From sequence record OZ035774.1: DNA of 44,649 nt. One strand, written 5' to 3'. The translations under genes were made by a program, and so were the position numbers. Below the pieces are notes generated by a model, which worked only from the letters and a program-made list of their open reading frames with translations, made no database searches and was not told where the DNA came from. Source of the DNA: Vectrevirus T147P9. Of this stretch, positions 330 through 21,905 are shown one piece after another. Every line of letters begins with the position of its first letter. Positions within the stretch are counted from its first letter, which is position 1.

Positions 330-330
330 T

Positions 331-774
331 ATGCATAGATGGTGTGAATCTCAAGGTTATACCATCTTACCTTCTGGTGTCATCCTTTCAAAGGGTGGCA
401 CCCCTCTCAAACCATTCAAGGCGGGTAGGGGTTATTTAGCAGTTAAAATTAAAAATAAAGAAGGTAAATGGCGTAATGTCTATGTTCATCAATTAGTGGC
501 TTATAAGTATTTACCTAAAACTAATAATGAAGTAAACCACAAAGACGGCGATAAGCACAACAATGATGTTAGCAACTTGGAGTGGGTAACAAGAAGCGAG
601 AATAACTATTTAAAATGCAATGGAAATGATAGGAGTGCCTTAAATAGCTATTTAGCAAGATTAAAAGATTGCTTCTTGCAAGGTAAGGGTGTAGCAGAAA
701 CCGCTAGACTTACTGGTAAAAGTGAACCAAGAGTTTCTTCTCTCTTTAAGGAGTGGCGAAATGGCAAAGGCTAG
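331..774 (+). CDS. HNH homing endonuclease
   Basis: ATG at 331 preceded by GAGGAG RBS (321-326); translation contains VHQLVAYKYLPKTNNEVNHKDGDKHNNDVSNLEWVTRSEN, the His-Asn-His/N-x-x-N pattern of phage HNH endonucleases; paralogous to the ORF at 18554..19033. The track ORF 184..774 is an unsupported N-terminal extension overlapping the previous gene. Confidence 0.75.
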   Translation: MHRWCESQGYTILPSGVILSKGGTPLKPFKAGRGYLAVKIKNKEGKWRNVYVHQLVAYKYLPKTNNEVNHKDGDKHNNDVSNLEWVTRSENNYLKCNGNDRSALNSYLARLKDCFLQGKGVAETARLTGKSEPRVSSLFKEWRNGKG

Positions 775-2659
775 AGAATCACAGGCAGAGGCATTAAAGC
801 GGTGGGAAAACCTTAAAGAACTACAAGACACTTTTAAATATACAGCGGAAGGTTTGCTTCTCTTTGCAGATACAGTTATCCATAACTTGATTGCAGGCAA
901 CCCTCATCTGATTCGTATGCAGGCTGATATCTTGAAGTTCCTATTCTACGGACATAAGTATCGCCTCATCGAAGCGCCTCGTGGTATCGCTAAGACAACA
1001 CTATCAGCAATCTACACGGTATTCCGTATTATCCATGAACCGCATAAGCGTATCATGGTTGTATCCCAAAACGCTAAGCGAGCAGAGGAAATCGCTGGTT
1101 GGGTGGTGAAAATCTTCCGTGGCCTAGACTTCCTTGAGTTTATGCTGCCGGATATCTACGCAGGGGACCGTGCATCCGTTAAAGCATTTGAGATTCATTA
1201 CACCCTACGTGGTAGTGATAAGTCTCCTTCTGTATCCTGTTACTCAATCGAAGCAGGTATGCAGGGTGCTCGTGCTGATATTATTCTAGCGGATGACGTA
1301 GAGTCGATGCAGAATGCTCGTACGGCAGCGGGCCGTGCCTTGCTTGAGGAACTGACTAAGGAGTTTGAATCTATCAACCAGTTTGGGGATATCATTTACC
1401 TTGGTACGCCTCAGAACGTAAACTCTATCTACAACAACCTACCTGCTCGTGGTTACTCTGTTCGTATCTGGACTGCGCGTTATCCTTCAGTAGAGCAAGA
1501 GCAATGTTATGGTGACTTCCTTGCACCTATGATTGTTCAAGATATGAAGGACAACCCAGCACTTCGCTCAGGGTACGGGTTGGATGGTAATAGTGGTGCA
1601 CCTTGTGCCCCTGAAATGTATGATGATGAAGTCCTGATTGAGAAGGAAATCTCTCAGGGTGCGGCTAAGTTCCAGCTTCAGTTCATGCTTAACACTCGCA
1701 TGATGGATGCAGACCGCTACCCACTACGCCTGAACAACCTCATCTTTACTTCGTTCGGTACAGAGGAAGTACCTGTAATGCCTACGTGGAGTAATGACTC
1801 TATTAACATCATTGGCGATGCCCCGAAGTATGGCAATAAACCTACAGACTTCATGTATAGACCTGTGGCTCGCCCGTATGAATGGGGTGCTGTTACACGC
1901 AAGATTATGTATATTGACCCTGCTGGTGGTGGTAAGAATGGGGACGAAACAGGCGTGGCTATAGTCTTTCTGCACGGCACATTCATTTACGTGTATCAGT
2001 GCTTCGGTGTGCCAGGCGGATACCGTGAATCGTCCCTGAATCGCATTGTGCAGGCCGCAAAGCAGGCGGGTGTTAAAGAGGTATTCATTGAGAAGAACTT
2101 TGGTCATGGCGCGTTTGAGGCCGTTATAAAGCCATACTTTGAACGAGAGTGGCCTGTAACTCTGGAAGAGGATTACGCCACAGGACAGAAAGAGTTGCGT
2201 ATCATTGAGACGCTGGAGCCACTCATGGCGGCACACAGGCTCATCTTTAACGCAGAGATGGTGAAATCGGACTTTGATTCGGTACAGAACTATCCGCTTG
2301 AGCTACGCATGTCCTACAGCCTTTTCAATCAAATGTCGAACATCACGATTGAGAAGAACAGCCTCCGGCACGATGACCGCTTAGACGCTCTGTATGGCGC
2401 TATACGGCAATTAACTTCTCAGATAGACTATGACGAGGTTACACGGATTAATCGCCTCAGAGCGCAGGAGATGCGCGATTACATCCATGCTATGAACACA
2501 CCTCACCTCCGCAGGGCGATGCTCTATGGAGATTATGGCACTGAGCGAAGAGTAACCAACACTTCCGTGGCTATGCAGCAAAGAGTGTACGGTCAGAATT
2601 ACAGGAGTAAATCGGCAAATCGAAATACACTTTCTGCAAGGATTTCAAGGACTTATTAA
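761..2659 (+). CDS. terminase large subunit (DNA maturase B)
   Basis: About 630-aa ORF; Walker-A-like segment (LIEAPRGIAKTT), C-terminal nuclease-like segment (YIDPAGGGKNGDETG); size and position match T7 gp19. Start taken at ATG 761 (RBS AAGGAGTGG 748-756); in-frame alternative at 722. Confidence 0.9.
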   Translation: MAKARESQAEALKRWENLKELQDTFKYTAEGLLLFADTVIHNLIAGNPHLIRMQADILKFLFYGHKYRLIEAPRGIAKTTLSAIYTVFRIIHEPHKRIMVVSQNAKRAEEIAGWVVKIFRGLDFLEFMLPDIYAGDRASVKAFEIHYTLRGSDKSPSVSCYSIEAGMQGARADIILADDVESMQNARTAAGRALLEELTKEFESINQFGDIIYLGTPQNVNSIYNNLPARGYSVRIWTARYPSVEQEQCYGDFLAPMIVQDMKDNPALRSGYGLDGNSGAPCAPEMYDDEVLIEKEISQGAAKFQLQFMLNTRMMDADRYPLRLNNLIFTSFGTEEVPVMPTWSNDSINIIGDAPKYGNKPTDFMYRPVARPYEWGAVTRKIMYIDPAGGGKNGDETGVAIVFLHGTFIYVYQCFGVPGGYRESSLNRIVQAAKQAGVKEVFIEKNFGHGAFEAVIKPYFEREWPVTLEEDYATGQKELRIIETLEPLMAAHRLIFNAEMVKSDFDSVQNYPLELRMSYSLFNQMSNITIEKNSLRHDDRLDALYGAIRQLTSQIDYDEVTRINRLRAQEMRDYIHAMNTPHLRRAMLYGDYGTERRVTNTSVAMQQRVYGQNYRSKSANRNTLSARISRTY

Positions 2660-2680
2660 TTACTGGACACTATAGAAGGA
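2658..2680 (+). promoter_or_regulatory. phage RNAP promoter
   Basis: aattactggacactatagaagga immediately 3' of the terminase large stop; SP6-like core CACTATAGAAG. Confidence 0.7.
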
Positions 2681-2813
2681 AGGCCCAGATAATAAGAGAA
2701 ATAACAAGGATAATATAGGTTAACCTAGGTTATATAGGTATGCCTTAGTATGGGTGTACTCCTGTACACCCTATTCCTTACTTCCTTACTATACTTACAT
2801 AATAGGAGAGAGA

Positions 2814-3092
2814 ATGTCTAATAGTTATAGTACACAACCCCTTACCGGTAAGTCTGCTCGTAAGCAGATACAACCTGTGAGTGAAGCCCTGATGCTTCCT
2901 GTAGTTTACGAGGACACTGTTGAGAAGAAAGGTGATGTTATTAATGATGCCACCAAATCAGGTAAGCAGAAAGGCGCCATGGTGTGTCTTGATACACATG
3001 ATACACTGGTTATTGCTATCGCAGTTGATGGCAAAGAAGATTCCAATTGGCTGACCACGTTATTAGCGGTCACTACTATTACCCCAGCTTAA
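2814..3092 (+). CDS. hypothetical protein (tandem paralogue A)
   Basis: ATG 2814 after AGGAGAGAG RBS; shares SGKQKGxMVxxxxxDxxLxIAIA with the next ORF. Confidence 0.6.
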   Translation: MSNSYSTQPLTGKSARKQIQPVSEALMLPVVYEDTVEKKGDVINDATKSGKQKGAMVCLDTHDTLVIAIAVDGKEDSNWLTTLLAVTTITPA

Positions 3093-3104
3093 GAGGAGAA
3101 TTAC

Positions 3105-3392
3105 ATGTCTAATTATGGAAACGCAGGTACTGTTACTGGTCAAGCTTTTCGAGTAAAAACTGTACAAACCACTGCAACGGCAATCCCTTTGCCTATTGTT
3201 GCTGAAGCAGACCTTAAGAAGAAAGATCACCCTATCAACATTAAACACCTATCTGGCAAACAGAAAGGCTCCATGGTTGCTGTAGAGAAAGCAGACAACT
3301 CCTTGTACATCGCTATTGCACGTGGTAGTGAACCAACTGACCCTTGGGATGCAACCACTATGGAGGAGACACCTGTAACCCCTGTAGCTTAA
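3105..3392 (+). CDS. hypothetical protein (tandem paralogue B)
   Basis: ATG 3105 after AGAGGAG RBS; both paralogues start MSN and share a conserved core. Confidence 0.6.
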   Translation: MSNYGNAGTVTGQAFRVKTVQTTATAIPLPIVAEADLKKKDHPINIKHLSGKQKGSMVAVEKADNSLYIAIARGSEPTDPWDATTMEETPVTPVA

Positions 3393-3413
3393 TTGTAACA
3401 GATGAGGTCGGTG

Positions 3414-3758
3414 ATGCTTAATAAATACTTCAAGCGACGCGAGTTCGCTTGCCGTTGTGGGTGCGGTACATCCACTGTTGATGCTGAATTACTACAGGTA
3501 GTAACAGATGTGCGTGAGCACTTTGGTTCTCCTGTAGTTATCACTTCGGGGCATCGCTGTGCTAAGCACAATGCTAATGTAGGAGGAGCTAAGAACTCCA
3601 TGCATCTTACTGGTAAGGCTGCTGACATTAAGGTACGAGGCATCTTACCTTCTGATGTACATAAGTATCTTACTGATAAGTACCAAGGCAAATATGGGAT
3701 TGGTAAGTATAACTCCTTTACTCATATTGATGTACGTGACGGGTGTGCACGATGGTAG
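3414..3758 (+). CDS. endolysin, peptidase M15 family (zinc D-Ala-D-Ala carboxypeptidase-like fold)
   Basis: SGHRCAKHNANVGGAKNSMHLTGKAADI and FTHIDVRD give the His/Asp/His zinc-ligand pattern of M15 peptidases; start at ATG 3414 (GAGG upstream), alternative ATG 3402. Confidence 0.8.
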   Translation: MLNKYFKRREFACRCGCGTSTVDAELLQVVTDVREHFGSPVVITSGHRCAKHNANVGGAKNSMHLTGKAADIKVRGILPSDVHKYLTDKYQGKYGIGKYNSFTHIDVRDGCARW

Positions 3759-3866
3759 GTTGTGTTGCATGGTGTGAACGCATGGTTGCTAAGGCTTCAG
3801 AGGAAGGCAACTATGAAGATTGGCAGAACTACTCAACTTTATTAGCTCAATGGAAAGGGAGATGCA

Positions 3867-4016
3867 ATGAAAAAGCTGTTCAAATCTAAGAAGGTTGTAG
3901 GTGCACTAGTTGCATTGGCAATTGCTCTTGTTTCTGTAGGTCTTGGTGTAGACCTTGGCTCTGGCACGGAATCCTCTGTGACAGACGTGGTCTGCCAAGT
4001 GATCACCTGTGAATAA
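3867..4016 (+). CDS. small single-TM membrane protein (possible holin/antiholin-like lysis protein)
   Basis: 49-aa ORF MKKLFKSKKVVGALVALAIALVSVGLGVDLGSG..., basic N-terminus plus one hydrophobic helix, sited between endolysin and spanin genes. Not in the ORF track (<60 aa). Confidence 0.35.
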   Translation: MKKLFKSKKVVGALVALAIALVSVGLGVDLGSGTESSVTDVVCQVITCE

Positions 4017-4230
4017 GTTTCTAGAAGTGCTGGCAGGTCTTATTGGCCTGCTTGTCTCTGCTAAGAAGAAACAAGAAGAGAAGGAGGCACAAAGTGAAGC
4101 GAATCATGTTAGTGACAATCCTGCTGATTGGTTCGCTGACCACTTCCGGGTGTCAGCAGGCGTTACCAGAGAAAGCAATGGTGAAACCTCTGAGGCCGAC
4201 GCTGACGGCAGTTTACGAGGTAGACGATAA
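4009..4230 (+). CDS. putative i-spanin (Rz-like)
   Basis: GTG start; N-terminal TM helix (FLEVLAGLIGLLVSA) followed by a charged soluble domain; contains the o-spanin-like ORF in another frame, as with T7 18.5/18.7. Confidence 0.55.
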   Translation: MNKFLEVLAGLIGLLVSAKKKQEEKEAQSEANHVSDNPADWFADHFRVSAGVTRESNGETSEADADGSLRGRR

Positions 4231-4303
4231 AGTCTGCTTCAGTAAGCCTGATGCTACAAAATTAGGTTTGTATATTCTTTCGCTAGAACGCGGATATAAT
4301 TAA
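4106..4303 (+). CDS. putative o-spanin (Rz1-like lipoprotein), overlapping the i-spanin gene
   Basis: MLVTILLIGSLTTSGCQQ is a signal peptide with a lipobox-like Cys; ORF starts inside the Rz-like gene in a different frame and extends past its stop. Alternative GTG start at 4094 with AAGGAGG RBS at 4081-4087. Confidence 0.55.
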   Translation: MLVTILLIGSLTTSGCQQALPEKAMVKPLRPTLTAVYEVDDKVCFSKPDATKLGLYILSLERGYN

Positions 4304-4332
4304 TACATAGCTTTATGTATCAGTGTCTTACG

Positions 4333-4356
4333 ATTTACTGGACACTATAGAAGAGG
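4333..4356 (+). promoter_or_regulatory. phage RNAP promoter (consensus copy)
   Basis: atttactggacactatagaagagg upstream of the first tailspike gene. Confidence 0.75.
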
Positions 4357-4434
4357 TAAGATAGCGCCGTTCTTTTGAGCGGCCTATTACTAGCCAATCT
4401 TCATGGTGAGGGTTGGAAAGTAATAGGAGGTTTA

Positions 4435-6327
4435 ATGGCAAGATTAACTCGCCCTGTTAGTGTATTTAATAGTCTGATGGATATTACTTACCCATGCTCC
4501 ACTGATGGTGGTAAAGCGGAACTACTACAGGTTATACCCGGACGTATGTCTGGTGGTGGTATCCTACTTTGGGACGCCAGTATGCCTCAGTCCAATCATA
4601 ATGGTATTACCATCCTCAGCCCTGAAGCTAAATGGGATGGTACTCTAGAAGGTTTTAAGGCCTATAGGGAAAGTGGAGGGACTGGCAATGGTTGCTGGGT
4701 TCGACCACGCAAAGGTACTGATCTGATGGCATCTTGGGCTGGTGTTGACACAGACGGGGACTGGATTGCGGATGAGCCACTTATGGCGCTGTGTCAGATT
4801 GCACATACACAACGTCGTAATATACGCATAGACTCTGGTGCTGTCATTCGTTGCGGTTTCACAACTCCGATTTTTCAGCAAGACAAGCACAACATTCTAT
4901 CTCAAACATCTTTTGTATTACGTGGTTTAAAGAACTTCTCCATATATGCTGAGCAAGATGCAGAGATAATCACAGACCACCCTGTACATCGTGAGCGTAC
5001 AGTATTCTTCTTGGACGGTTGCGATAAGGTTACAATTTCTGGTCTTAAGTTTAATTCTGATTTCAGCGATTATTCTTTCGAACCTAATAGTCCCTATGAG
5101 CACCATATCAATGAACACTGGTTAGGTGTAGTTGCAGAGGCTTGTGGTACTGTTGAGGTTCGCAGATGTATGTTCAATGCACCTCAGTTTGCTGTAAAGG
5201 CCGACTGTTTTAATAGAACAGACGGTAGGTGGAATGACACAGTTGCAGTAAAAGATTGTTTCTTCCAGTATGCTACAAACTATTGCTTTTTATCACGTAA
5301 GTTACGACATTACATCTTCTCTGATAATGAAGTAAGATTTAATGGACGTAAGTGGCATACATATGGAGAGGCTTGTGCTCCTACTACCTATACTGAGAAT
5401 CAGATTATCACTCGTAACCGTTTCATAGATCAGATTGCTGGTCAAAGCTGTATAACTCCTGGTTCTTATGCTAAGCAAGTACTTATTTCAGATAACTTCT
5501 GTCAACGTAGTAATGGTATCTTTGTTGAGATAGGCAGTGCTAGTAATATTAATATTCTTAACAACGTCTCCAAATCTACAGGTGAACGCATCGTCCACGG
5601 AAGTGATAAGTATGCAGGAACTACACACATCCTTCTAGTATCTGGGGCAGTTGATGATGAACCTGCTGGTGGGCTAAGTAATATCTTGATTCAAGGTAAT
5701 AACTTCCAAGGCGGTGGTTATGCTTTACAAGAGTACAATACAGGCATCCCTATTCGTCGCGGGTTGGATATTCTTAATAACCACCTTGTAGACTGTATTC
5801 CACCAGCCTGTACTAACCAATCCTTTAAGTATATTAGGGTAGAAGGTAACTACATCCAAGCACCGGATGATTACCCAGATATGGCTATTGCAGGTCAACA
5901 CCCTATTATCAAGGATAATGTCCTTATCGGTGTGCGATTGAGGGCTAGAGATTTAGGTTATACTGTTGTAGGGTTAAAAGTAATAGGTAATACTTTTACT
6001 GCAAATAGTGTAGCATCTAAGTTCCCTGCACTGATAGACTACACTGATCTAGAAGATCTTGAAGCTTATGACAACGCAGCAGGTATTCAGGCATCTTATG
6101 ATAGCTTTATAGTAGCACCTGATAACTGTAATAAAATTAGCTTTATGAAAGTCGGTATGGTTGAAGGTTTTACACAGACACCAGCAGTGGTTTATGGTAG
6201 TAAGTTGCAAGAACAGAAGGCAGGTGCGATTATTGGCAATAGTGCACCTGGGTCTGTACATGGTTGTGCTGCATTCGTGAGTACTTCTAGTGGTGGTTGG
6301 GGTTTTATAAACTACGTTCCCGCATAA
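4435..6327 (+). CDS. tailspike protein 1 (putative capsule depolymerase with beta-helix-like repeats)
   Basis: About 630 aa; ATG 4435 after AGGAGG RBS; repetitive segments (ISGLKFNS, ILNNVSKS, IQGNNFQGGG, RVEGNYIQ, IGNTFTANS) suggest a parallel beta-helix; right-end position as in K1-5/SP6 tailspikes. Track start 4375 lacks an RBS. Confidence 0.65.
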   Translation: MARLTRPVSVFNSLMDITYPCSTDGGKAELLQVIPGRMSGGGILLWDASMPQSNHNGITILSPEAKWDGTLEGFKAYRESGGTGNGCWVRPRKGTDLMASWAGVDTDGDWIADEPLMALCQIAHTQRRNIRIDSGAVIRCGFTTPIFQQDKHNILSQTSFVLRGLKNFSIYAEQDAEIITDHPVHRERTVFFLDGCDKVTISGLKFNSDFSDYSFEPNSPYEHHINEHWLGVVAEACGTVEVRRCMFNAPQFAVKADCFNRTDGRWNDTVAVKDCFFQYATNYCFLSRKLRHYIFSDNEVRFNGRKWHTYGEACAPTTYTENQIITRNRFIDQIAGQSCITPGSYAKQVLISDNFCQRSNGIFVEIGSASNINILNNVSKSTGERIVHGSDKYAGTTHILLVSGAVDDEPAGGLSNILIQGNNFQGGGYALQEYNTGIPIRRGLDILNNHLVDCIPPACTNQSFKYIRVEGNYIQAPDDYPDMAIAGQHPIIKDNVLIGVRLRARDLGYTVVGLKVIGNTFTANSVASKFPALIDYTDLEDLEAYDNAAGIQASYDSFIVAPDNCNKISFMKVGMVEGFTQTPAVVYGSKLQEQKAGAIIGNSAPGSVHGCAAFVSTSSGGWGFINYVPA

Positions 6328-6412
6328 TCACAAGGCAGTGCGTAAGCACTGCTTTTCACGCAACTTTTCTTAAAGGTTATCATGGTGGTAGCCTTTCAGA
6401 AAAGGAGGTTAC

Positions 6413-11780: not shown

Positions 11781-14408
11781 ATGCAAGATTTACACGCTAT
11801 TCAACTTCAACTTGAAGAAGAAATGTTTAACGGCGGTATCCGTCGCTTTGAAGCGGACCAACAACGCCAGATTGCATCCGGTAATGAATCAGACACGGCA
11901 TGGAATCGCCGCTTATTGTCCGAGTTAATCGCGCCAATGGCTGAAGGTATTCAGGCTTATAAGGAAGAGTACGAAGGCAAGCGCGGTCGTGCACCACGTG
12001 CATTGGCTTTCATTAACTGCGTAGAAAATGAAGTGGCAGCGTATATCACGATGAAGATCGTAATGGATATGCTTAACACTGATGTAACCTTGCAAGCTAT
12101 CGCTATGAATGTAGCTGACCGCATCGAAGACCAAGTGCGCTTCAGTAAACTAGAAGGCCATGCAGCTAAATATTTTGAGAAGGTCAAGAAGTCACTTAAG
12201 GCAAGTAAGACTAAATCATATCGCCATGCGCACAATGTAGCGGTCGTGGCTGAGAAGTCAGTAGCTGACCGTGACGCTGATTTCTCTCGCTGGGAAGCGT
12301 GGCCTAAAGATACCTTGCTACAAATTGGTATGACCTTGCTAGAAATACTGGAAAATAGTGTATTCTTCAACGGGCAGCCTGTTTTCATCCGCACCTTGCG
12401 TACTAATGGCGGCAAACACGGTGTTTACTACTTACAGACTAGTGAACACGTTGGCGAGTGGATAACCGCCTTCAAAGAGCACGTAGCGCAACTAAGCCCT
12501 GCATATGCACCTTGCGTTATTCCTCCGCGTCCGTGGGTTTCACCTTTCAACGGTGGGTTTCATACTGAGAAAGTAGCAAGCCGTATCCGCCTTGTTAAAG
12601 GCAACCGTGAGCACGTCCGTAAGTTAACTAAAAAGCAAATGCCAGCGGTCTATAAGGCTGTTAACGCCTTACAAGCTACTAAGTGGCAGGTTAACAAGGA
12701 AGTATTGCAGGTAGTAGAAGATGTTATTCGTCTAGACCTCGGTTATGGTGTACCTTCCTTTAAGCCGCTCATTGACCGCGAGAACAAACCAGCTAACCCT
12801 GTTCCTCTTGAGTTCCAACACCTGCGAGGCCGTGAACTGAAAGAGATGCTTACGCCAGAACAGTGGCAAGCTTTTATAAACTGGAAAGGAGAATGTACCA
12901 AGCTGTATACCGCTGAAACTAAGCGCGGAAGCAAGTCGGCGGCGACCGTTCGCATGGTTGGACAGGCCCGTAAATACAGCCAGTTTGACGCAATTTATTT
13001 TGTGTATGCACTGGACAGCCGTTCACGCGTTTATGCGCAATCTAGCACGCTCTCGCCGCAATCAAACGACTTAGGCAAGGCATTGCTCCGTTTTACCGAA
13101 GGGCAGCGTCTTGATAGCGCTGAGGCGCTTAAGTGGTTTTTGGTGAACGGGGCGAATAATTGGGGTTGGGATAAGAAAACTTTTGACGTGCGCACCGCTA
13201 ACGTGCTGGATGGCGAATTTCAAGACATGTGCCGCGATATTGCAGCCGACCCGCTGACCTTCACTCAATGGGTAAATGCTGATTCCCCTTACGGCTTCCT
13301 TGCATGGTGCTTTGAATATGCGCGTTATCTGGATGCACTGGATGAAGGCACGCAAGACCAATTCATGACGCACCTACCCGTCCATCAAGACGGTAGTTGC
13401 TCTGGTATCCAGCACTATAGCGCGATGTTACGCGATGAAGTAGGTGCGAAAGCAGTAAACCTTAAGCCTTCTGACTCCCCTCAAGATATTTATGGCGCGG
13501 TTGCGCAGGTTGTTATCCAGAAGAATTACGCCTACATGAATGCAGACGATGCAGAGACTTTCACATCTGGAAGCGTCACACTTACAGGTGCAGAACTGCG
13601 TAGCATGGCTAGTGCGTGGGATATGATAGGAATCACTCGCGGATTGACCAAAAAGCCCGTAATGACACTACCTTATGGCAGCACACGTCTAACCTGCCGT
13701 GAATCAGTGATTGATTATATCGTTGATTTGGAAGAAAAAGAGGCCCAACGAGCTATTGCGGAAGGGCGTACCGCCAATCCTGTACATCCTTTTGATAATG
13801 ACCGTAAGGACAGCCTGACACCTAGCGCAGCTTATAACTATATGACAGCTTTAATCTGGCCTTCTATTTCGGAAGTGGTTAAAGCCCCTATAGTGGCAAT
13901 GAAAATGATTCGTCAGCTTGCCCGTTTCGCAGCTAAAAGGAATGAAGGCTTAGAGTATACCTTGCCTACTGGCTTCATCTTGCAACAAAAGATAATGGCG
14001 ACAGATATGCTCCGCGTATCTACTTGCTTGATGGGAGAAATCAAGATGAGTCTACAGATTGAAACGGACGTAGTGGATGAAACGGCTATGATGGGCGCTG
14101 CTGCTCCTAACTTTGTGCATGGTCATGATGCCAGTCACCTTATCTTAACAGTCTGCGACCTTGTTGATAAAGGGATTACATCTATCGCAGTCATTCATGA
14201 TTCTTTCGGTACTCACGCAGGCCGTACAGCCGATCTACGTGATAGTCTAAGGGCAGAAATGGTGAAGATGTATCAAGGCCGTAATGCCCTGCAAAGCCTG
14301 TTAGATGAGCATGAAGAACGCTGGTTAGTAGACACCGGAATCCAAGTGCCAGAGCAAGGAGAATTTGACCTTAACGAAATCTTAGTATCTGACTATTGCT
14401 TCGCATAA
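11781..14408 (+). CDS. T7/SP6-type single-subunit DNA-directed RNA polymerase
   Basis: 875 aa; catalytic motifs [13 protein letters not shown] (motif A) and VIHDSFGTH (motif C) as in T7 RNAP; length close to SP6 RNAP. Confidence 0.95.
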
Positions 14409-14680: not shown

Positions 14681-14685
14681 TTCGT

Positions 14686-14709
14686 ATTTACCGGACAGTA
14701 TAGATAAGA
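14686..14709 (+). promoter_or_regulatory. phage promoter-like sequence (degenerate)
   Basis: atttaccggacagtatagataaga; CAGTATAG instead of CACTATAG; upstream of the gp1.1-like gene. Confidence 0.35.
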
Positions 14710-14733
14710 CTAACTTACTTTGGAGATTTAACC

Positions 14734-14862
14734 ATGCGTAACTTTGAGAAGATGACCCGTAAAGCTAACCGTTTTGACATGGAAGAAGGGCAGACTAAAG
14801 GCAAGAAGCTTAATAAACCTGTCCGCGACCGTGCATCTAAACGCGCTGCGTGGGAGTTCTAA
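14734..14862 (+). CDS. T7 gene 1.1-like small basic protein
   Basis: 42-aa ORF MRNFEKMTRKANRFDMEEGQTKGKKLNKPVRDRASKRAAWEF; recalled T7 gp1.1 begins MRNFEKMT and shares KGxKLNK...RDR; not in track. Confidence 0.7.
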   Translation: MRNFEKMTRKANRFDMEEGQTKGKKLNKPVRDRASKRAAWEF

Positions 14863-14865
14863 GTT

Positions 14866-15087
14866 ATGGCTAAATACAGGATTAAGACGTGTTTAAACAA
14901 TCAGGGGCATGAGTGCTATATAGTACAGCGTAAGGTTCTACTGGGCTTGCTGTGGGTTACTTGTATGATGCCTATTGGCTACACTGACACTGAAGCCATC
15001 TTTGGCACGGAAGATGATGCCTACAGATTCATCGCTAAACGTAGAAAAGTAGAACGTTATAAACACAGAATTATTAAGGTAAACTAA
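14866..15087 (+). CDS. hypothetical protein
   Basis: 73-aa ORF abutting the primase-helicase start; no motif recognised. Confidence 0.5.
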   Translation: MAKYRIKTCLNNQGHECYIVQRKVLLGLLWVTCMMPIGYTDTEAIFGTEDDAYRFIAKRRKVERYKHRIIKVN

Positions 15088-17075
15088 TGGCTATAATCAA
15101 TAACATTCAATGCCCTGCTTGTGCTAAGAACGGGCATGATAAATCCTCTAATCATCTCATGATATTTGATGATGGTGCTGGCTACTGTAATCGTGGACAC
15201 TTTCATGATAATGGTAGACCCTACTACCACAAGCCGGAAGGTGGCATCGAAATCACCGAGCTACCCATCACTGGCAACATCAAATATACACCTTCTCAAT
15301 TCAAAGAAATGGAGAAGGAAGGGAAGATAAGCGACCCTAAGCTACGCGCCATCGCACTTGGTGGTATGCGTATGAAAGACCGTTGGGAGGTTATGAATGA
15401 GCAAGAAAGGGCAGACCAAGAAGCAGAGTGGAAGCTTGATGTTGAATGGTTCCTCACGCTTAAGCGTAAGAACCTTGTATCCCGTCACATTCGAGGTGAC
15501 ATCGCAGCAATGTACGATGTGCGCGTTGGACACGATGAAGAGGGAAGAGTCAACCGTCACTATTATCCACGATATGAAAAGGGTGTGCTTGTTGGAGCAA
15601 AATGCCGGACGTTGCCGAAGGATTTTAAGTTCGGACACCTAGGTAAACTCTTTGGTATGCAAGATCTTTTCGGTATGAACACTTTGTCTCACGTGTTAGA
15701 CAAGGGGAGACGAAAGGATTGCTTGCTTATTGTAGGCGGTGAACTTGATGCACTAGCAGCGCAGCAGATGCTCCTTGATTCTGCCAAGGGTACTAAGTGG
15801 GAGGGTCAGCCATACCATGTATGGTCTGTCAACAAAGGTGAGTCTTGCCTTGAAGAGATAGTGCAGAACCGTGAGCATATCGCCCAATTCAAGAAGATTA
15901 TATGGGGTTTTGATGGAGATGAGGTAGGGCAGAAGCAGAATCAGCAAGCGGCTCGCCTGTTTCCTGGCAAATCCTATATCCTTGAATACCCCTCTGGTTG
16001 CAAAGATGCTAACAAGGCATTGATGGCTGGCAAGGCTAAAGAGTTTGTAGATGCATGGTTTAATGCCAAGTCATCTGATGAAGTCTTTGGTAGCCAGATT
16101 AAATCTATCGCATCTCAAAGGGATAAGCTCAAGGCTGCACGTCCAGAGCAAGGACTATCATGGCCTTGGCCTAAGCTGAACAAGGTAACGCTAGGTATTC
16201 GTAAGAATCAGCTTATCATTGTAGGTGCAGGGTCTGGTGTAGGTAAGACTGAGTTCCTTCGTGAAGTAGTTAAGCACCTCATTGAAGAACACGGTGAATC
16301 TGTAGGCATCATTTCTACAGAAGACCCGATGGTCAAGGTGTCCCGTGCTTTTATCGGCAAGTGGATTGATAAGCGTATTGAGTTACCGCCAACCAACGAC
16401 CCGAAAGAAGATGGATACCGTGAGGTGTTCGACTACACCGAGGAAGAAGCTAACGCCGCCATTGATTATGTAGCTGATACAGGTAAGCTGTTTGTGGCTG
16501 ACCTAGAGGGTGACTATTCGATGGAAAAGGTAGAGCAAACTTGCCTAGAGTTTGAGGCTATGGGCATTTCTAATATCATCATTGATAACTTAACGGGAAT
16601 TAAATTAGATGAGCGTGCTTTTGGTGGGAAGGTTGGTGCACTTGATGAATGCGTCAAGCGGATTGGTACTATCAAAGACCGACACCCGGTTACTATATTC
16701 CTTGTATCACACCTTACACGTCCTCCGGCAAACCGTACCCAACACGAAGAAGGTGGCGAAGTTATCCTTTCTGACTTCCGAGGCTCAGGCGCTATCGGAT
16801 TCTGGGCATCTTACGCCTTGGGGATTGAGCGTAATACAAGAGCTGAAACGCTTGACGAAAGGACTACCACGTACATCTCATGTGTCAAAGACCGCGACCA
16901 AGGTATCTGGACTGGAACCAAGGTCATGCTTAAGGGTGACATTCAAACCGGACGTTTAATGGAACCACAAGCCCGTACTAAGTCATTTGATACAGGTGAA
17001 GCAAGGCAACAAGAAGTGCCGGATTTACCGGACACTATAGAAGAGACAACCTTTGACGATGAACAGGAGTTTTAA
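15087..17075 (+). CDS. DNA primase/helicase (T7 gp4-like)
   Basis: N-terminal Cys4 zinc ribbon (CPACAKNGHDKSSNH...CNRGH), central TOPRIM-like region, Walker A VGAGSGVGKTEF of DnaB-family helicases; acidic C-terminal tail ending EQEF like T7 gp4. Confidence 0.9.
   Translation: MAIINNIQCPACAKNGHDKSSNHLMIFDDGAGYCNRGHFHDNGRPYYHKPEGGIEITELPITGNIKYTPSQFKEMEKEGKISDPKLRAIALGGMRMKDRWEVMNEQERADQEAEWKLDVEWFLTLKRKNLVSRHIRGDIAAMYDVRVGHDEEGRVNRHYYPRYEKGVLVGAKCRTLPKDFKFGHLGKLFGMQDLFGMNTLSHVLDKGRRKDCLLIVGGELDALAAQQMLLDSAKGTKWEGQPYHVWSVNKGESCLEEIVQNREHIAQFKKIIWGFDGDEVGQKQNQQAARLFPGKSYILEYPSGCKDANKALMAGKAKEFVDAWFNAKSSDEVFGSQIKSIASQRDKLKAARPEQGLSWPWPKLNKVTLGIRKNQLIIVGAGSGVGKTEFLREVVKHLIEEHGESVGIISTEDPMVKVSRAFIGKWIDKRIELPPTNDPKEDGYREVFDYTEEEANAAIDYVADTGKLFVADLEGDYSMEKVEQTCLEFEAMGISNIIIDNLTGIKLDERAFGGKVGALDECVKRIGTIKDRHPVTIFLVSHLTRPPANRTQHEEGGEVILSDFRGSGAIGFWASYALGIERNTRAETLDERTTTYISCVKDRDQGIWTGTKVMLKGDIQTGRLMEPQARTKSFDTGEARQQEVPDLPDTIEETTFDDEQEF
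17023..17046 (+). promoter_or_regulatory. phage RNAP promoter inside the 3' end of the helicase gene
   Basis: atttaccggacactatagaagaga. Confidence 0.6.
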
Positions 17076-17236
17076 TGGAAATTATTAAACCAGTATTGAA
17101 TATCGGTATTGAGATCCTATTCATGCTTGTGATCGCAGATTATGCTGCACGATATGGATTCAAGAAAGCTGTGAAACTTATCGTTGCATCTGGTTTTCTT
17201 ATGTCAATGTTCTTTATTGTAACACGCCTTATCTAG
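17075..17236 (+). CDS. hypothetical small membrane protein (two predicted TM helices)
   Basis: 53-aa ORF MEIIKPVLNIGIEILFMLVIADYAARYGFKKAVKLIVASGFLMSMFFIVTRLI; ATG overlaps the helicase stop; not in track. Confidence 0.35.
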   Translation: MEIIKPVLNIGIEILFMLVIADYAARYGFKKAVKLIVASGFLMSMFFIVTRLI

Positions 17237-17253
17237 TGTATTTATCAGGGCTT

Positions 17254-17269
17254 GTCTCACATGTGAGAC
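17254..17269. repeat. 16-bp perfect palindrome GTCTCACATGTGAGAC (copy 3 of 6)
   Basis: Extended context ggcttgtctcacatgtgagacaggctcttatt forms an 11-bp-stem hairpin followed by a U-rich tract. Confidence 0.9.
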
Positions 17270-17308
17270 AGGCTCTTATTAAGTACATTAAATAACTGGA
17301 GATTGATT

Positions 17309-18031
17309 ATGTATAAATTAGTATTGAATGTAGGTGATTATGTTCGTAACATCAATGAAGCCTCACGTCGTTATCGTTGCCGTGGTGTAGTGGCTCGTGT
17401 AAGTGAGAACATGTATCATGTAGAATATGAGGATGGTATTAAGGCTTCTTACCACAAGAAAACAGCACATAAATATCTTGAAAAGATTGTAGAGATAAAC
17501 AATCAATGTAAGTGCATACATGATGAGGTTTGCGATAAGTGTGCACGTCAGGCAGTTAAAGCCTTTACCTTTGCTCAACGTTATGGTTCTATGTATGGCG
17601 CTGGTCACAAGACCCTTGCAGAAGCAGCTTGGAAGACATTACAGTTTGAGCGTTCAAATGGACGACGCACCACAATTAAGAAAGAGCGCCGCAATGTAAT
17701 CACTGGTAAGACTCAAAGTGAAATGATTAAGCAATGTGGCACTGCACTAGGTGTTACGCAGTTTAACACTCGTGCTCTTGGTAAATCCACAGGACAAGCT
17801 ATGGTAAAGATTGGCGAAGCCATGATGCATCCAAATGTACCTGTACGAATCAGGGATGTTGACCATGCAATCACAGAACACGGTACGCAACGACGTGTAA
17901 TTAATAAGCATTTTGCCGACACTATAGAAGGTATTATTCGTAAGCAAGGGTTGAAAGGTCTTCACATCTTGAATGATGAAGAGTTACTGTACCTCCCTAT
18001 TGTTACTGAAGAAACCTACGTGAATATCTAA
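17309..18031 (+). CDS. hypothetical protein
   Basis: 240-aa ORF (ATG 17309; track TTG 17303); Cys cluster CKCIHDEVCDKC; contains an internal promoter-like sequence. Confidence 0.6.
   Translation: MYKLVLNVGDYVRNINEASRRYRCRGVVARVSENMYHVEYEDGIKASYHKKTAHKYLEKIVEINNQCKCIHDEVCDKCARQAVKAFTFAQRYGSMYGAGHKTLAEAAWKTLQFERSNGRRTTIKKERRNVITGKTQSEMIKQCGTALGVTQFNTRALGKSTGQAMVKIGEAMMHPNVPVRIRDVDHAITEHGTQRRVINKHFADTIEGIIRKQGLKGLHILNDEELLYLPIVTEETYVNI
17910..17933 (+). promoter_or_regulatory. phage promoter-like sequence (variant) inside a CDS
   Basis: attttgccgacactatagaaggta. Confidence 0.4.
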
Positions 18032-18041
18032 GGAGTTAATC

Positions 18042-18260
18042 ATGACTAAAGTATTAATTTATATGCGTGGACCTCATAAATGCTATGCAGTTGTAGCACC
18101 AAATGGTGTTAAGCCCTATAGTACTTCAAAAGGATTGGCATTAATAGGTGCTAGTAGTAGTGCAAGTTTCCAAATGGAACTTTTTGGTCATTGGAATGAA
18201 AGGCAATTCCGTGAGGATTTTAAAGTCATTGGCAGCTTCATGGTGAAACATGCAGAATAA
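18042..18260 (+). CDS. hypothetical protein
   Basis: 72-aa ORF with AAGGAG RBS. Confidence 0.5.
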   Translation: MTKVLIYMRGPHKCYAVVAPNGVKPYSTSKGLALIGASSSASFQMELFGHWNERQFREDFKVIGSFMVKHAE

Positions 18261-18426
18261 ACATAGTCTTAAAATGTTCGATGGTCATGAAGACCTGCAA
18301 GCCAAGATTACTAACCAAGCCTTCCTGTTTGCACAGTTAACCATGGCTGAAGCAAAGAAGAATAGCCTGACGCGTGAACAGGTTATCAAGGAAAGTGAAG
18401 TGAAACGTAAGATTCGCAGTCGATAA
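18250..18426 (+). CDS. hypothetical protein
   Basis: 58-aa ORF MQNKHSLKMFDGHEDLQAKITNQAFLFAQLTMAEAKKNSLTREQVIKESEVKRKIRSR overlapping the previous stop; not in track. Confidence 0.3.
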   Translation: MQNKHSLKMFDGHEDLQAKITNQAFLFAQLTMAEAKKNSLTREQVIKESEVKRKIRSR

Positions 18427-18436
18427 GTCAAGGGTT

Positions 18437-18452
18437 GTCTCACACGTGAGAC
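18437..18452. repeat. 16-bp palindrome variant GTCTCACACGTGAGAC (copy 4 of 6)
   Basis: One symmetric change (ACGT centre) keeps it palindromic; context gggttgtctcacacgtgagacagcctttc. Confidence 0.85.
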
Positions 18453-18553
18453 AGCCTTTCATCATATTGATTGGAGGATTAACTTTATGAATAACTACGA
18501 CTCTGATTGGGATTTCTACGATTCAATGCAATCTAAACCAGAAAGGAGGGAGG

Positions 18554-19033
18554 ATGAGTTCGAAACAGATCAAATGTACGAGGATTTTTACTAACTACAT
18601 CCTCTACTCTGATGGTCGAGTTCTTAACGAGAAAACCGGACAATATCTAAGAGGTTACTTAGATAAAGATGGGTATCATATTATGAATATTAAAGGGAAA
18701 CACCTTAAAGTTCATCGATTAGTTGCTATCCATTTCATACCTAACCCTAATAATTTACCTGAAGTTAACCATAAAGATCATGACCGTCTAAACAATAATG
18801 ATTGGAATCTAGAGTGGTGTACTCATCAAGATAACAATAAGCATAGCTTACATTTAGTAATAGCTTCTTGTGCTAAACGCTATGACTTTATATCACCACA
18901 AGGTGTCCATGTAGAAGTCTATAACTTACGTGAGTTTTGTAGGAATAACAACCTACAGCAATCTCATATGGTTAAGGTGGCTAAAGGTAAAGTAAGACAT
19001 CATAAAGGTTGGACTAATTATGCTAGATGTTGA
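18554..19033 (+). CDS. HNH homing endonuclease
   Basis: VHRLVAIHFIPNPNNLPEVNHKDHDRLNNNDWNLEWCTHQDNN is an HNH motif paralogous to the ORF at 331..774; immediately upstream of and overlapping the DNA polymerase start. Confidence 0.75.
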   Translation: MSSKQIKCTRIFTNYILYSDGRVLNEKTGQYLRGYLDKDGYHIMNIKGKHLKVHRLVAIHFIPNPNNLPEVNHKDHDRLNNNDWNLEWCTHQDNNKHSLHLVIASCAKRYDFISPQGVHVEVYNLREFCRNNNLQQSHMVKVAKGKVRHHKGWTNYARC

Positions 19034-21530
19034 TTGGAAAGAATTTGGAAAGAATCGCATACTTGTCATGGATGCTGAAAGTAAAGGTTTGCTTGATGCC
19101 ATACGCTATGGTCATCGTGAAGATGTGCACATCATTTGCTGCATGGACTTGCTCACCACTGAGGAGTTCCTATTCTTCGACCCGTATGAGATGCGTGACC
19201 CTGAAGCAAGAGAACGCCTAAAAGAATGGGAAGGCCATCAAGATGGAACATTGGTTGACGGTGTTAACTTCCTTAAGCACTGCGAAGCCATCGTCTCACA
19301 GAACTTCCTAGGGTACGACGGCCTTCTATTTGAGAAAGCATTCCCTGATATATGGAAAGGCTTTAATTATACAGAGAAGCGTGGCAAGGGCAGGCTCCGT
19401 GCCGACCTGTGTCCTGTGCGAGTCATGGACACGCTGGTGATGAGCCGCCTGTTAAACCCTGATAGACGCCTCCCTCCGCAAGCATACGCCAAAGGCATGG
19501 GTAACGTCGCCCCTCACTCAATTGAGGCGCACGGCATCCGTATAGGCCGTTATAAGCCGGAGAATGAGGACTGGTCTAAGCTAACTGACCACATGGTTCA
19601 CCGTGTACGGGAGGACGTGGCGATTGGTCGTGACTTGTTCCTCTGGCTCTTTAACGGGGAATGGATGGAGCACAAACGCCGTGGCGTGAATAAACGCACT
19701 GGCCTAGGTATTGAGACAGCCTTCCACATGGAGTCCATTGTGGCGCTGGAGATGAGCCGTCAGGCCGAGCGCGGGTTCCGTCTGGACATCGACAAAGCTT
19801 TGGCCCGATGCGAAGAATTGGACGCTAAGATTGACGAGACAGTCGCAGCGTTCCGCCCTCACATGCCTATGCGTATCAAGTCTAAACCTTTTAAACCGGA
19901 AGAAAAGAATGAAGTATGCCAACGCGCAAATGAGTATGGAGCTAGCAACAATATACCTACTGTCCTTGACCCCTCACACTTTCTTCATGCCGAGAGACGA
20001 GGAGATCGCAAGACAGTATGGAGTGTCACTACTAAGTCTGGTGATTGGTCGGCTAGTGTCAAGAAAGACTTTCCTCACCTTAGAGGAAGCCGTAATGACA
20101 CGCCAAGCATCAAGTGGATTGGCGCTTACTCGCCTGTTACTTTCGAAGAGATTCCCTTGGGTAACAGGGATACAGTTAAGCAAGTACTCTATGATTATGG
20201 ATGGAAAGGTGTTGAATTTAACGATACCGAGCAAGCGCATCTCGATGAGCACGGAGTGTTACCCAAACCTTGGAGTGGTAAGATAAATGAAAAGTCCCTT
20301 ACTTTATGGCAAGAAAGAGCCGCACGTGAAGGTAAAACAGTCCCTGATTGGTGCTTGGGTATCGCTGCATGGTACATACTCGTATCCCGTCGTGGTCAGA
20401 TACTCAACCGTGGTGACGTTGAAGCCTTCAACGAGAAGGGAACGTGGCCCTCGCAGGCTGGTGTACGAAAGTGTCGCGGCCTTGTACCTGTAGCATTCAA
20501 CAAGGAGCTAGGAATCAATGCGCAGCAATACTACGAGAGGTACGGATGTTGGCCTACGTCTGACAAAGATGACGGAGAGTGGCGTGTGCCAGGCAATGCT
20601 GTTACTATTGGCACTAATACGTTCCGTATGCGTCATCGTAATATTGTTAATATCCCTTCCCGTGGATTGTATCCTCTGCGTGATTTATTCATAGCTAGCA
20701 AGGGTAAAATGATACTCGGATGTGATGGAGCGGGGCTTGAGCTTCGCATCTTAGCCCATTTCATGGGTGATCCTGAGTATATTGATATTGTCTTGAATGG
20801 CGATATTCACTCGCACAACCAAGCGAAGGCTGGATTGCCCTTACGTGACACTGCGAAAACATTTATCTACGCTTTTCTCTACGGTTCTGGCATACCAAAC
20901 CTTGCTGCGGTATGTGGCATGACTGAAGCACAGATGAAAGAATGTGTCGCTCGCTTTGAAGTAGAGCTACCTCACTTAGCTAAACTTAAGGAGGGAGTGG
21001 AATCTGCTGCTTCACAATTTGGGTACATGCACGCGGTAGATGGGCGCTGGGGTCGTGTACGCGTTAGCAATGGTGAGATTAAGATTCACACTTGTCTAAA
21101 CGTATTACTTCAGATGACTGGCTCCCTCACTATGAAGTACTCAAAAGTGAAAGCACTGGCTACCATGCGTAAAGAGGGCGTAGCCCTTGATGCAAATGGT
21201 AATCCAGCAATGCTTGTTGACTACCATGATGAATGGCAGATGGAAGTACCTGAAGACGAAGTGTTAGAAATTCGCTACTCTATTCCTTCCTCTGAATGGA
21301 AAGAAGAAGAGAAAAGACAGTATCGTGACAGTGATGGACGCATGTGGTCTGCACCTAAGGTTGTGGAAGGTAATCCTAAAGAAGACGAGACGATCACAGT
21401 ACGTCGTCGTTACCATCGTGCAGGTGAGATTTTAGCTGAATCTATTACATGGGCTGGAGAATACCTCAAGCTACGTATTCGAATGGATGGTGAATATATG
21501 CTTGGATATTCATGGGCTGAAACGCACTAA
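19020..21530 (+). CDS. DNA polymerase (family A, T7 gp5-like)
   Basis: 836 aa; motif A DGAGLELRILAHF, motif B RDTAKTFIYAFLYGSG, motif C HDEWQMEV; N-terminal 3'-5' exonuclease-like region. Confidence 0.9.
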   Translation: MLDVDWKEFGKNRILVMDAESKGLLDAIRYGHREDVHIICCMDLLTTEEFLFFDPYEMRDPEARERLKEWEGHQDGTLVDGVNFLKHCEAIVSQNFLGYDGLLFEKAFPDIWKGFNYTEKRGKGRLRADLCPVRVMDTLVMSRLLNPDRRLPPQAYAKGMGNVAPHSIEAHGIRIGRYKPENEDWSKLTDHMVHRVREDVAIGRDLFLWLFNGEWMEHKRRGVNKRTGLGIETAFHMESIVALEMSRQAERGFRLDIDKALARCEELDAKIDETVAAFRPHMPMRIKSKPFKPEEKNEVCQRANEYGASNNIPTVLDPSHFLHAERRGDRKTVWSVTTKSGDWSASVKKDFPHLRGSRNDTPSIKWIGAYSPVTFEEIPLGNRDTVKQVLYDYGWKGVEFNDTEQAHLDEHGVLPKPWSGKINEKSLTLWQERAAREGKTVPDWCLGIAAWYILVSRRGQILNRGDVEAFNEKGTWPSQAGVRKCRGLVPVAFNKELGINAQQYYERYGCWPTSDKDDGEWRVPGNAVTIGTNTFRMRHRNIVNIPSRGLYPLRDLFIASKGKMILGCDGAGLELRILAHFMGDPEYIDIVLNGDIHSHNQAKAGLPLRDTAKTFIYAFLYGSGIPNLAAVCGMTEAQMKECVARFEVELPHLAKLKEGVESAASQFGYMHAVDGRWGRVRVSNGEIKIHTCLNVLLQMTGSLTMKYSKVKALATMRKEGVALDANGNPAMLVDYHDEWQMEVPEDEVLEIRYSIPSSEWKEEEKRQYRDSDGRMWSAPKVVEGNPKEDETITVRRRYHRAGEILAESITWAGEYLKLRIRMDGEYMLGYSWAETH

Positions 21531-21539
21531 GGAGGTTTA

Positions 21540-21905
21540 ATGAGAACGGAACGCAAAGCAGCTAACTACCGGAAAAGGTGCGAAGACATGCCGTTCCATA
21601 TGTACAATATTGCTAAACGTAGTGATGCACGTAAGAAGTGTATACCTTATAACTTAGACTCTACCTATTTAGAAAGCATCTGGACAGGGATATGTCCTGT
21701 GTTCGGTATTCCTCTTAATGTACCATTGAAAGAGGCTAAAGGGCGAGGATCTTGTCATACGGCACACCTTGACAGAATTAACCCTAAGTTGGGTTATGTG
21801 AAAGGTAATGTAGCATGGTTAAGTGGACGAGCTAATCGCATCAAATATGATGCTAGTCTGGAAGAGTTGGAGGCACTTCTTCTTTGGATGAAATCACAGC
21901 ATTGA
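21540..21905 (+). CDS. HNH endonuclease
   Basis: 121 aa with CPVFGIPL...SCHTAHLDRINPKLGYVKGNVAWLSGRANRIK (His-Asn-His pattern); directly after the DNA polymerase gene. Confidence 0.7.
   Translation: MRTERKAANYRKRCEDMPFHMYNIAKRSDARKKCIPYNLDSTYLESIWTGICPVFGIPLNVPLKEAKGRGSCHTAHLDRINPKLGYVKGNVAWLSGRANRIKYDASLEELEALLLWMKSQH

Follow-up and report, generated by a model that had tools for sequence, protein, structure and literature searches.

Homing endonuclease genes that stand free beside essential genes are well known in phages, examples being the seg and mob genes of T4, gene 5.3 of T3 and the homing endonuclease gene (HEG) islands of ICP1. The gp5.3 and I-TslI enzymes reportedly cut the phage DNA polymerase gene at an intron insertion site, as shown by experiment. 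Nuclease genes of this kind cluster beside essential genes, bracket them and replace one another in fixed slots (PMC10448857), and both intronless homing and collaborative homing, in which a free-standing enzyme targets the insertion site of an intron, have been described (PMC3984707). Here we analyze the 44,649-nucleotide sequence of Vectrevirus T147P9 (OZ035774.1), called the window throughout, and three short open reading frames (ORFs) in it: HNH-1 at the terminase genes, and HNH-2 and ORF3 on either side of the DNA polymerase gene. We put the probability at roughly 0.8 that all three are homing endonuclease genes of the free-standing kind and spread by intronless homing. As with T4-like seg/mob genes and ICP1-like HEG islands (PMC2988022; PMC10448857), the insertions lie between essential genes and are patchily distributed, flanking markers appear to be co-converted, more than one nuclease gene brackets a single essential gene, and nuclease genes replace each other in a slot. 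The nuclease families and the phage group are different ones, and HEG islands often exceed 10 kb, whereas the cargo here would be one 2.5-kb polymerase gene of which only the two ends are nuclease-linked.

The window (44.6 kb) is a near-complete genome of a K1-5/K1E-like Vectrevirus (Autographiviridae, Molineuxvirinae). Its closest relative genome-wide is T147P1 (~95.5% identity), and its first 3 kb are 94-97% identical to LI10P5, Mt1B1_P10 and PDP21P6. A first-pass annotation made from the letters of the window had described three HNH endonuclease genes, at 331..774, 18554..19033 and 21540..21905, wedged against the terminase and polymerase genes; all three ORFs are found at these coordinates. 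The features used below are listed here.

30..329, + strand: terS, terminase small subunit (PF11123, E = 3.6e-16), with its stop codon at 327..329.
331..774, + strand: HNH-1, 147 amino acids, with its ATG at 331 and GAGGAG just 5' of it; the insert is 331..760 (430 bp).
761..2659, + strand: terL, terminase large subunit (PF22530), with the same start as in relatives; the ORF list gives a further upstream GTG at 722.
18487..18594, + strand: gp12-like ORF of 35 amino acids, recognized by translation and comparison with the T147P1 empty allele.
18554..19033, + strand: HNH-2, 159 amino acids; the extra DNA is 18585..19029 (445 bp).
19020..21530, + strand: DNA polymerase, family A, 836 amino acids (PF00476), lying between HNH-2 and ORF3.
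20840..20890, + strand: coding sequence of polymerase motif B, RDTAKTF/IYAFLYG, placed by alignment with ULINTec4.
21540..21905, + strand: ORF3, 121 amino acids; the insert is 21529..21903 (375 bp).
21906..21962, + strand: conserved junction GTTATACTCAAGGTCACTTACGAGTGGCCTTTATG..., the right-hand edge of the variable post-polymerase slot, with a hairpin at about 21915..21936.
25578..25985: core endonuclease VII (PF02945, 1.5e-12; 98% identity to K1-5 gp24).

Comparison with K1-5, K1E and other relatives revealed empty alleles at every site. K1-5 has none of the three genes; K1E has none of them at these sites and no insert between terS and terL. The empty alleles are precise and delimit the extra DNA to 331..760, 18585..19029 and 21529..21903. 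The three genes are carried sporadically and independently of one another: LI10P5 has HNH-1 and HNH-2 without ORF3, ULINTec7 has HNH-2 only, PDP21P6 has HNH-1 only, and the metagenomic contig L020, scored at the two polymerase sites, has ORF3 without HNH-2. At the first two sites, fixed carrier-specific substitutions occur only within ~15-120 nt of the inserts. The pattern that the first-pass annotation had named as contrary to homing, namely that every relative has the same HNH genes and none an empty site, is thus not what the relatives display, and its homing-endonuclease reading is strongly supported by the empty alleles, the independent assortment, the near identity of the inserts amid flanks that differ by 2-9% and the carrier-linked recoded flanks.

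At the terS/terL junction, presence, absence and linkage were counted in 76 related records of a phage collection of 50,697 genomes; 16 of the 76 carry HNH-1. In the empty-allele genomes, which include K1-5, K1E, ULINTec7, PDP21P3 and T147P1, terS and terL overlap by one base. These alleles align to window positions 1..330 and then from 761 onward, and the insert is therefore 331..760. Its left edge keeps the terS stop codon, and the 3' end of HNH-1 provides, inside its own reading frame, AAGGAG-N7-ATG as a Shine-Dalgarno sequence for terL. The terL 5' allele of the window (95-100% identity) is present in exactly the 16 HNH-1 carriers, while the other 60 records, all lacking HNH-1, are only 78-81% identical to the window in that region. 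The linkage is perfect (16/16 vs 0/60), and none of the 76 records has a 'resistant but empty' terL allele, that is, a recoded flank without HNH-1. Carriers are 100% identical to the window across 271..860, as against 88% for non-carriers over the last 60 nt of terS (271..330) and 72% over 761..860; before 270 and after 861 the two groups are indistinguishable. Carriers and non-carriers are separated by 28 fixed differences, at positions 317 and 326 and at 26 positions in 766..838. In terL they are confined to that segment, with none elsewhere in the gene, and cause five amino-acid changes; the last ~30 nt of terS (299..329) are recoded in carriers as well. Over its 590 bp the HNH-1 cassette has 0-1 differences among genomes whose adjoining 2 kb differ by 1.6-9.3% (P = 6e-5 to 1e-25). 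Such near identity amid divergent flanks indicates a probable recent horizontal spread of HNH-1. The start region of terL in HNH-1-less genomes (equivalent to 766..838) is a candidate target region; it is modestly conserved in non-carriers, with 1.4% divergence vs 2-6% nearby.

At the second site, the T147P1 empty allele has a 35-amino-acid gp12-like ORF that ends 14 nt into the polymerase gene, and 3 nt where the window has 445 bases (18585..19029). The window retains a variant, HNH-2-linked gp12-like ORF (18487..18594), absent from the earlier list, whose 3' part overlaps the start of HNH-2 by 41 nt. An overlap of HNH-2 with the polymerase start had been described; it measures 14 nt (19020..19033). 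The HNH-2 stop lies where the ancestral gp12 stop lies, equally 14 nt past the polymerase start, so the overlap is that of the ancestral junction. For HNH-1, overlap with both terminase genes had been claimed. That with terL is real (14 nt, 761..774), while terS has ended at 327..329 before the HNH-1 ATG at 331. The downstream overlaps with essential genes are thus genuine but not a peculiarity of the inserts, because the ancestral junctions already overlap in the empty alleles, by 1 nt for terS/terL and 14 nt for gp12/polymerase.

HNH-2 is present at no less than 98% identity in four records, with 99-100% identity only in ULINTec7, LL11 and LI10P5. In Sem1-4, ULINTec4 and T205P4 the slot is filled by alleles with 52-61% protein identity, and K1-5 and K1E have unrelated small ORFs there (gp11.5/gp12 in K1E). 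Fixed carrier-specific substitutions are limited to 18478..18594 and 19024..19081, the first 60 nt of the polymerase gene being recoded together with HNH-2, and the 630-bp HNH-2 cassette has 1-7 differences vs 3.4-6.9% in its flanks. We also observed that the first 41 nt of HNH-2 (18554..18594), which overlap the gp12-like ORF, are 98-100% identical in Sem2, ULINTec4 and T205P4, while the rest of the HNH gene at this site is only 55-65% identical in the same three genomes. This suggests either allele swapping downstream of the shared 5' end or constraint from the overlapping ORF.

The products of HNH-1 and HNH-2 both match the Pfam family HNH_3 (PF13392) above its gathering score of 24.8, at 43.4 bits (E = 2.6e-11) and 25.1 bits (E = 1.3e-5), respectively, and both match PHROG 59 and 959 ('HNH endonuclease'). 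Both also align with I-HmuI (PDB 1u3e), the intron-encoded nicking HNH endonuclease from the DNA polymerase gene of the Bacillus phage SPO1. HNH-2 aligns over nearly its full length (E = 3.5e-16, residues 14-154), from the DNA-binding sheet at the N-terminus through the HNH motif to the NUMOD-like helix-turn-helix, for which there is in addition a weak I-HmuI NUMOD-like Pfam match (E = 0.0086). HNH-1 shares only the N-terminal domain and HNH motif (E = 5.4e-6, residues 11-92), and its C-terminus is a sigma-factor region-4-like helix-turn-helix, not NUMOD. The modular architecture of N-terminal DNA-binding sheet, HNH motif and C-terminal helix-turn-helix is therefore found complete in HNH-2 and only in part in HNH-1. 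The signature ...NHKDG...N.N...NLEW.T...N is kept in the alignment, with H70, N82 and N91 in HNH-1 and H73, N85 and N94 in HNH-2. Like I-HmuI, both genes are tied to essential phage genes; unlike it they are free-standing, and the identity is only ~30-40%. On these alignments both are predicted to be HNH_3 endonucleases of the I-HmuI type, and by analogy they possibly nick DNA as I-HmuI does.

The first-pass annotation had called HNH-1 and HNH-2 clear paralogues. They are homologous, with 42% identity confined to the N-terminal 86 amino acids (E = 4e-15), but do not look like recent duplicates, since their C-terminal domains differ. Duplication within the genome was considered and rejected: each is about as near (36-47%) to HNH genes of unrelated phages as to the other. 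The two belong to a single family but carry unlike DNA-binding tails, and are not recent paralogues. A further relationship links HNH-2 to gp40.5 of K1E, a GIY-YIG homing endonuclease gene of the same genus that likewise targets terL and has split it into 40A and 40B. Window segment 18872..19012, encoding the HNH-2 C-terminal domain, corresponds to K1E 2000..2533 at the gp40.5 C-terminus, and the NUMOD-like domains are 43-45% identical. The catalytic domain of gp40.5 (GIY-YIG) and its site (within terL) are different, and the window has no gp40.5. The shared tail indicates probable domain shuffling between nuclease families within the genus. HNH-1 and HNH-2 are not novel as such, as GenBank records of relatives already annotate HNH homing endonucleases.

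ORF3 starts 9 nt past the polymerase stop, in agreement with its earlier placement just after that gene. The insert of 375 bp (21529..21903) consists of a Shine-Dalgarno sequence and the ORF only, and PDP21P6 has the precise empty allele, ...CACT/GAGTTATAC... Most relatives, K1E included, have two tiny ORFs, gp13.5 and gp14, in this slot. Before the GTTATACTCAAGGTCACTTACGAGTGGCCTTTATG junction lies the stop codon of the polymerase gene in PDP21P6 and PDP21P3, of gp14 in T147P1 and of ORF3 in the window, and 21906..21962 is 95-100% identical in all relatives. No genome of the 50,697-genome collection, the 76 related ones included, has ORF3 at the post-polymerase position. Two metagenomic contigs do, with ORF3 98-100% identical after the same 836-amino-acid polymerase and no HNH-2. 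Directly after ORF3 lies an 86-amino-acid ORF (21963..22223) that is 98-99% identical in ULINTec7, T205P4, T147P1 and DIJ06P1; the other genomes lack it or have something else in its place. The variable slots that flank the polymerase gene each have a conserved, GC-rich hairpin just beyond them, at 18432..18457 (GGGTTGTCTCAC-ACGT-GAGACAGCC) and 21915..21936 (AAGGTCACT-TACG-AGTGGCCTT); these hairpins may serve as terminators or RNase III sites and at the same time mark boundaries of recombination.

The best database homologue of ORF3 (71% identity) is located inside the polymerase gene of ULINTec4. There, an unannotated group I intron occupies 13159..13757 of MZ997839.1, which GenBank presents as two polymerase coding sequences and a 'putative endonuclease'. 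The intervening 599 nt follow U, end in G and match RF00028 (E = 3.4e-8, below the gathering score), and their removal restores an 849-amino-acid polymerase ORF. The insertion point is in motif B (AKTF/IYAFLYG), corresponding to the boundary between window positions 20863 and 20864. A homologous intron at the same motif-B codon of gene 5 in the T7-like Salmonella phage Vi06 (NC_015271.1, locus 2386..3014) carries an ORF3 homologue of 60% identity; the same intron/nuclease pair is therefore present in two subfamilies of Autographiviridae. Four more family members came from metagenomes, two in motif-B introns (L023 and L025) and two right after a complete polymerase gene (L024 and L026). The intron-borne homologues (ULINTec4, Vi06, L023 and L025) are 57-71% identical to ORF3 and lie within RF00028 matches. 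The family is tied to the polymerase, because all nine contexts examined interrupt or adjoin that gene: four motif-B introns and five positions directly after the stop (the window, L019, L020, L024 and L026). For the window itself, no Rfam family reaches its gathering score over the whole length, and a group I intron sought around ORF3 (20600..22400) gave no match at E <= 5; ORF3 is therefore truly free-standing there. The polymerase and terL genes are uninterrupted ORFs, and none of the three nuclease genes is intron-encoded.

This arrangement parallels T3 gene 5.3 and I-TslI (phages phiI and W31) in several respects. In both systems a small nuclease gene lies directly 3' of an intron-less family A polymerase gene, nuclease homologues are found within a group I intron of the relatives' polymerase gene, and related phages have empty sites. 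Both belong to the T7 supergroup, in the lineage Studiervirinae for gene 5.3 and Molineuxvirinae for ORF3. The sequences are unrelated, ORF3 belonging to a Pfam-less family without the canonical His, and cleavage at the intron site, which would be the common activity, is for ORF3 a proposal drawn from these contexts. ORF3 was rejected as a homologue of T3 gp5.3/I-TslI (BLASTP E = 0.038 over 22 amino acids; hhalign probability 0.1%).

The first-pass annotation had counted ORF3 as a third HNH gene. That designation holds for HNH-1 and HNH-2 and does not hold for ORF3 in its canonical sense: a Pfam search found no family even at E = 10, PF02945 included, and BLASTP found no similarity to HNH-1 or HNH-2. 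A PDB sequence search gave only spurious cytochrome c matches. ORF3 matches PHROG 3322 ('endonuclease', 1.4e-27) and PHROG 1035 ('endonuclease VII', 3e-13), and its homologues form ~120 metagenome clusters, of which 0/120 have a precomputed Pfam domain. Residues C52, D78, G85, Y86, N90, N99 and K102 are invariant in the family. In the motif H76-L-D78-R79, R79 aligns with the canonical general-base His, and H76 is common but not invariant. PacI uses Tyr instead of His at the catalytic position. The structural model of ORF3 has an HNH-like beta-beta-alpha-metal fold with PacI as the best structural match, and on this model ORF3 is predicted to be an HNH-like beta-beta-alpha-metal nuclease resembling PacI and endonuclease VII (EndoVII), HNH-like in its modeled fold and neither a canonical HNH protein nor a member of the DHHRN/EndoVII-motif group. 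EndoVII-motif genes are known inside polymerase introns of T7-like phages, and F-CphI of the DHHRN family is, like ORF3, free-standing with an EndoVII-related beta-beta-alpha-metal core and an intron site in the neighboring essential gene (PMC6083498). The two His residues that define that family are absent from ORF3, as is a Pfam Endonuclease_7 match. Assignment of ORF3 to the DHHRN/EndoVII group was rejected, as H-L-D78-R79-x-N/x replaces D-H-x-H and PF02945 is not matched. What is new here is ORF3, as an undescribed nuclease family, and the addition is a modest one.

The polymerase gene of the window is a mosaic. From about 20588 to 21531, its 3' ~940 nt belong to a divergent allele, called 'type B', that shares 52-75% identity with the allele of the majority and 83-97% with those of PDP21P6, PDP21P3 and NTNC80A. 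The ORF3-bearing contig L020 is 99-100% identical to the window over 20621..21905 and 93-94% outside 20621..22223. At motif B, 8-10 positions in ~40 nt distinguish type A from type B alleles. From the intron-borne homologues, we infer that motif B (equivalent to 20840..20890) is the target region of ORF3 in sensitive alleles. The type-B block, which begins ~275 nt upstream of the boundary between 20863 and 20864 and ends at the ORF3 stop, has the shape that would be expected of a co-conversion tract from a motif-B break. In the contig L019 (Logan ERR13911328), a ~220-nt patch starting at the motif-B site (~window 20841..21060) is 89% identical to the ORF3-bearing polymerase allele, which L019 otherwise matches at 98-100%. 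The patch shares variants with NTNC80A and resembles the trace of a recombination event at the presumed cut site. In Vectrevirus NTNC80A (OP018999.1, locus 4450..4878), an HNH_3 gene lies directly after the type-B polymerase gene. It is a true homologue of T3 gp5.3 (45% identity, E = 3e-28) and fills the slot used by ORF3 in the window, so that unrelated nuclease genes turn over at that position.

Under the homing-endonuclease reading, the predicted enzyme would cut or nick, during mixed infection, a relative's gene-less allele at or near the junction that its own gene occupies in the carrier. The break would be repaired by recombination from the carrier genome, and the repaired genome would thereby acquire both the nuclease gene and the recoded segment of the essential gene next to it; that segment would make the carrier immune to its own enzyme. 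In this manner HNH-1 would have entered between terS and terL, and HNH-2 between gp12 and the polymerase gene. The flanking genes would still be expressed, because each insert rebuilds stop, Shine-Dalgarno and start signals. ORF3 would most likely cut intron-less, sensitive polymerase alleles at motif B, ~0.7 kb upstream of its own gene, and the polymerase 3' third would be dragged along as a co-conversion tract. The recoded flanks may thus act both as immunity and as hitch-hiking tracts.

Several observations speak against this interpretation or limit it. Cassettes that were imported once and then moved by ordinary recombination could give the same linkage patterns. The polymerase start in HNH-2-less genomes is not unusually conserved (10% divergence), so there is no obvious single conserved target there; motif B in non-carriers shows no unusual conservation either. 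Type-B alleles are found without ORF3 (PDP21P6 and PDP21P3) or with another nuclease gene (NTNC80A), so the divergent 3' third of the polymerase gene either is older than ORF3 or can be separated from it, and for the same reason co-conversion from motif B is offered as a tentative account. The RF00028 matches have E-values of 3e-8 to 4e-3 but score 27-40 bits, against a gathering score of 50. The predicted activity of ORF3 is less certain because the canonical general-base His is absent, H76 is not invariant and the DHHRN signature is failed.

The missing canonical His of ORF3 fits a different account, in which the ORFs are inactive relics, or accessory genes shuffled by general homologous recombination at conserved junctions. 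Vectrevirus genomes are highly mosaic throughout, and other small ORFs (gp12 variants, gp13.5/gp14 and the 86-amino-acid ORF at 21963..22223) vary at the same junctions. We nevertheless judge it distinctly unlikely, given that HNH-1 and HNH-2 retain intact HNH motif residues, that the ORF3 family keeps D78, N90, N99 and K102 across ~120 clusters and recurs at one polymerase site, within introns or after the gene, and that sharply bounded, carrier-only recoding of essential genes is not expected of neutral shuffling. The same intact reading frames and motifs would also suit nucleases that have been domesticated and kept as weapons in phage-phage or phage-satellite competition, with the same cutting under another selective rationale. 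All three genes would then protect and mobilize essential modules (terminase and polymerase), with HNH-2 and ORF3 bracketing the polymerase like cargo-carrying HEG islands (PMC10448857). Low, patchy frequency and the turnover of unrelated nucleases at the slots fit selfish elements at least equally well, and we consider domestication unlikely, though sequence data alone cannot separate benefit to the phage from selfish drive.

Two further explanations concern single genes. The position of HNH-1 exactly between terS and terL, with apparent translational coupling to terL through the 14-nt overlap, would be compatible with a functional, non-mobile accessory of the packaging machine; HK97-like cos phages are said to need a terminase-adjacent HNH protein for terminase cutting. 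We give this almost no credence. A gene of the HK97 gp74 type would be conserved beside the terminase throughout the group, while 60 of the 76 related phages package without HNH-1, with terS and terL directly abutting; moreover, the I-HmuI-type HNH_3 domain with a sigma-region-4-like helix-turn-helix tail is a homing-enzyme architecture, and the gene sits in a near-identical cassette with recoded flanks. ORF3, for its part, could be a second EndoVII-like repair or Holliday-junction nuclease placed beside the polymerase for co-expression, in line with its position directly after that gene and its match to PHROG 1035. This is very improbable: ORF3 is absent from this position in 76/76 related database genomes, its closest homologues are inside group I introns, and it does not have the DHHRN residues of EndoVII (PMC6083498). 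As the phage's resolvase ORF3 was rejected on its motif and because a conserved core endonuclease VII gene is already present elsewhere, at 25578..25985.

Returning to homing, the observations on ORF3 can be joined in a more specific proposal that we hold tentatively, at somewhat less than an even chance. ORF3 would represent an uncharacterized homing-endonuclease family, Pfam-less and with Arg for the catalytic His, that is specialized on motif B across the T7 supergroup and repeatedly switches between intron-borne and free-standing states; in the window it would act ~0.7 kb away and carry the polymerase 3' third, catalytic motifs included, as cargo. If so, alleles of an essential replication enzyme are being replaced under the drive of a selfish nuclease, and the family would be a second independent natural case, with another nuclease family, of the pre-adaptation or collaborative-homing route to mobile introns. 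It would offer a second system for testing mobile-intron formation and could yield a new sequence-specific nuclease. More generally, because the phenomenon is known and HNH-1 and HNH-2 are already annotated in relatives, the main value of these loci lies in the clean natural data that they provide: within a single genome, three sites with exact empty alleles, bounded recoded flanks and independent assortment narrow the candidate targets to tens of nucleotides. Such elements also distort identity locally in terL and polymerase, both common phylogenetic markers, and have made the Vectrevirus polymerase gene a three-part mosaic.

Two other genes of the window were noted along the way. An ORF of 73 amino acids with no Pfam match (14866..15087) lies just upstream of the primase/helicase gene, and the 214-bp segment holding it (14873..15086) is missing from each of the ten Vectrevirus genomes used for comparison. 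The other is the gene for the core endonuclease VII, the fourth of the His-Me-finger type in the window, which the earlier list did not include; relatives conserve this gene, and it presumably encodes the resolvase rather than being a mobile element.

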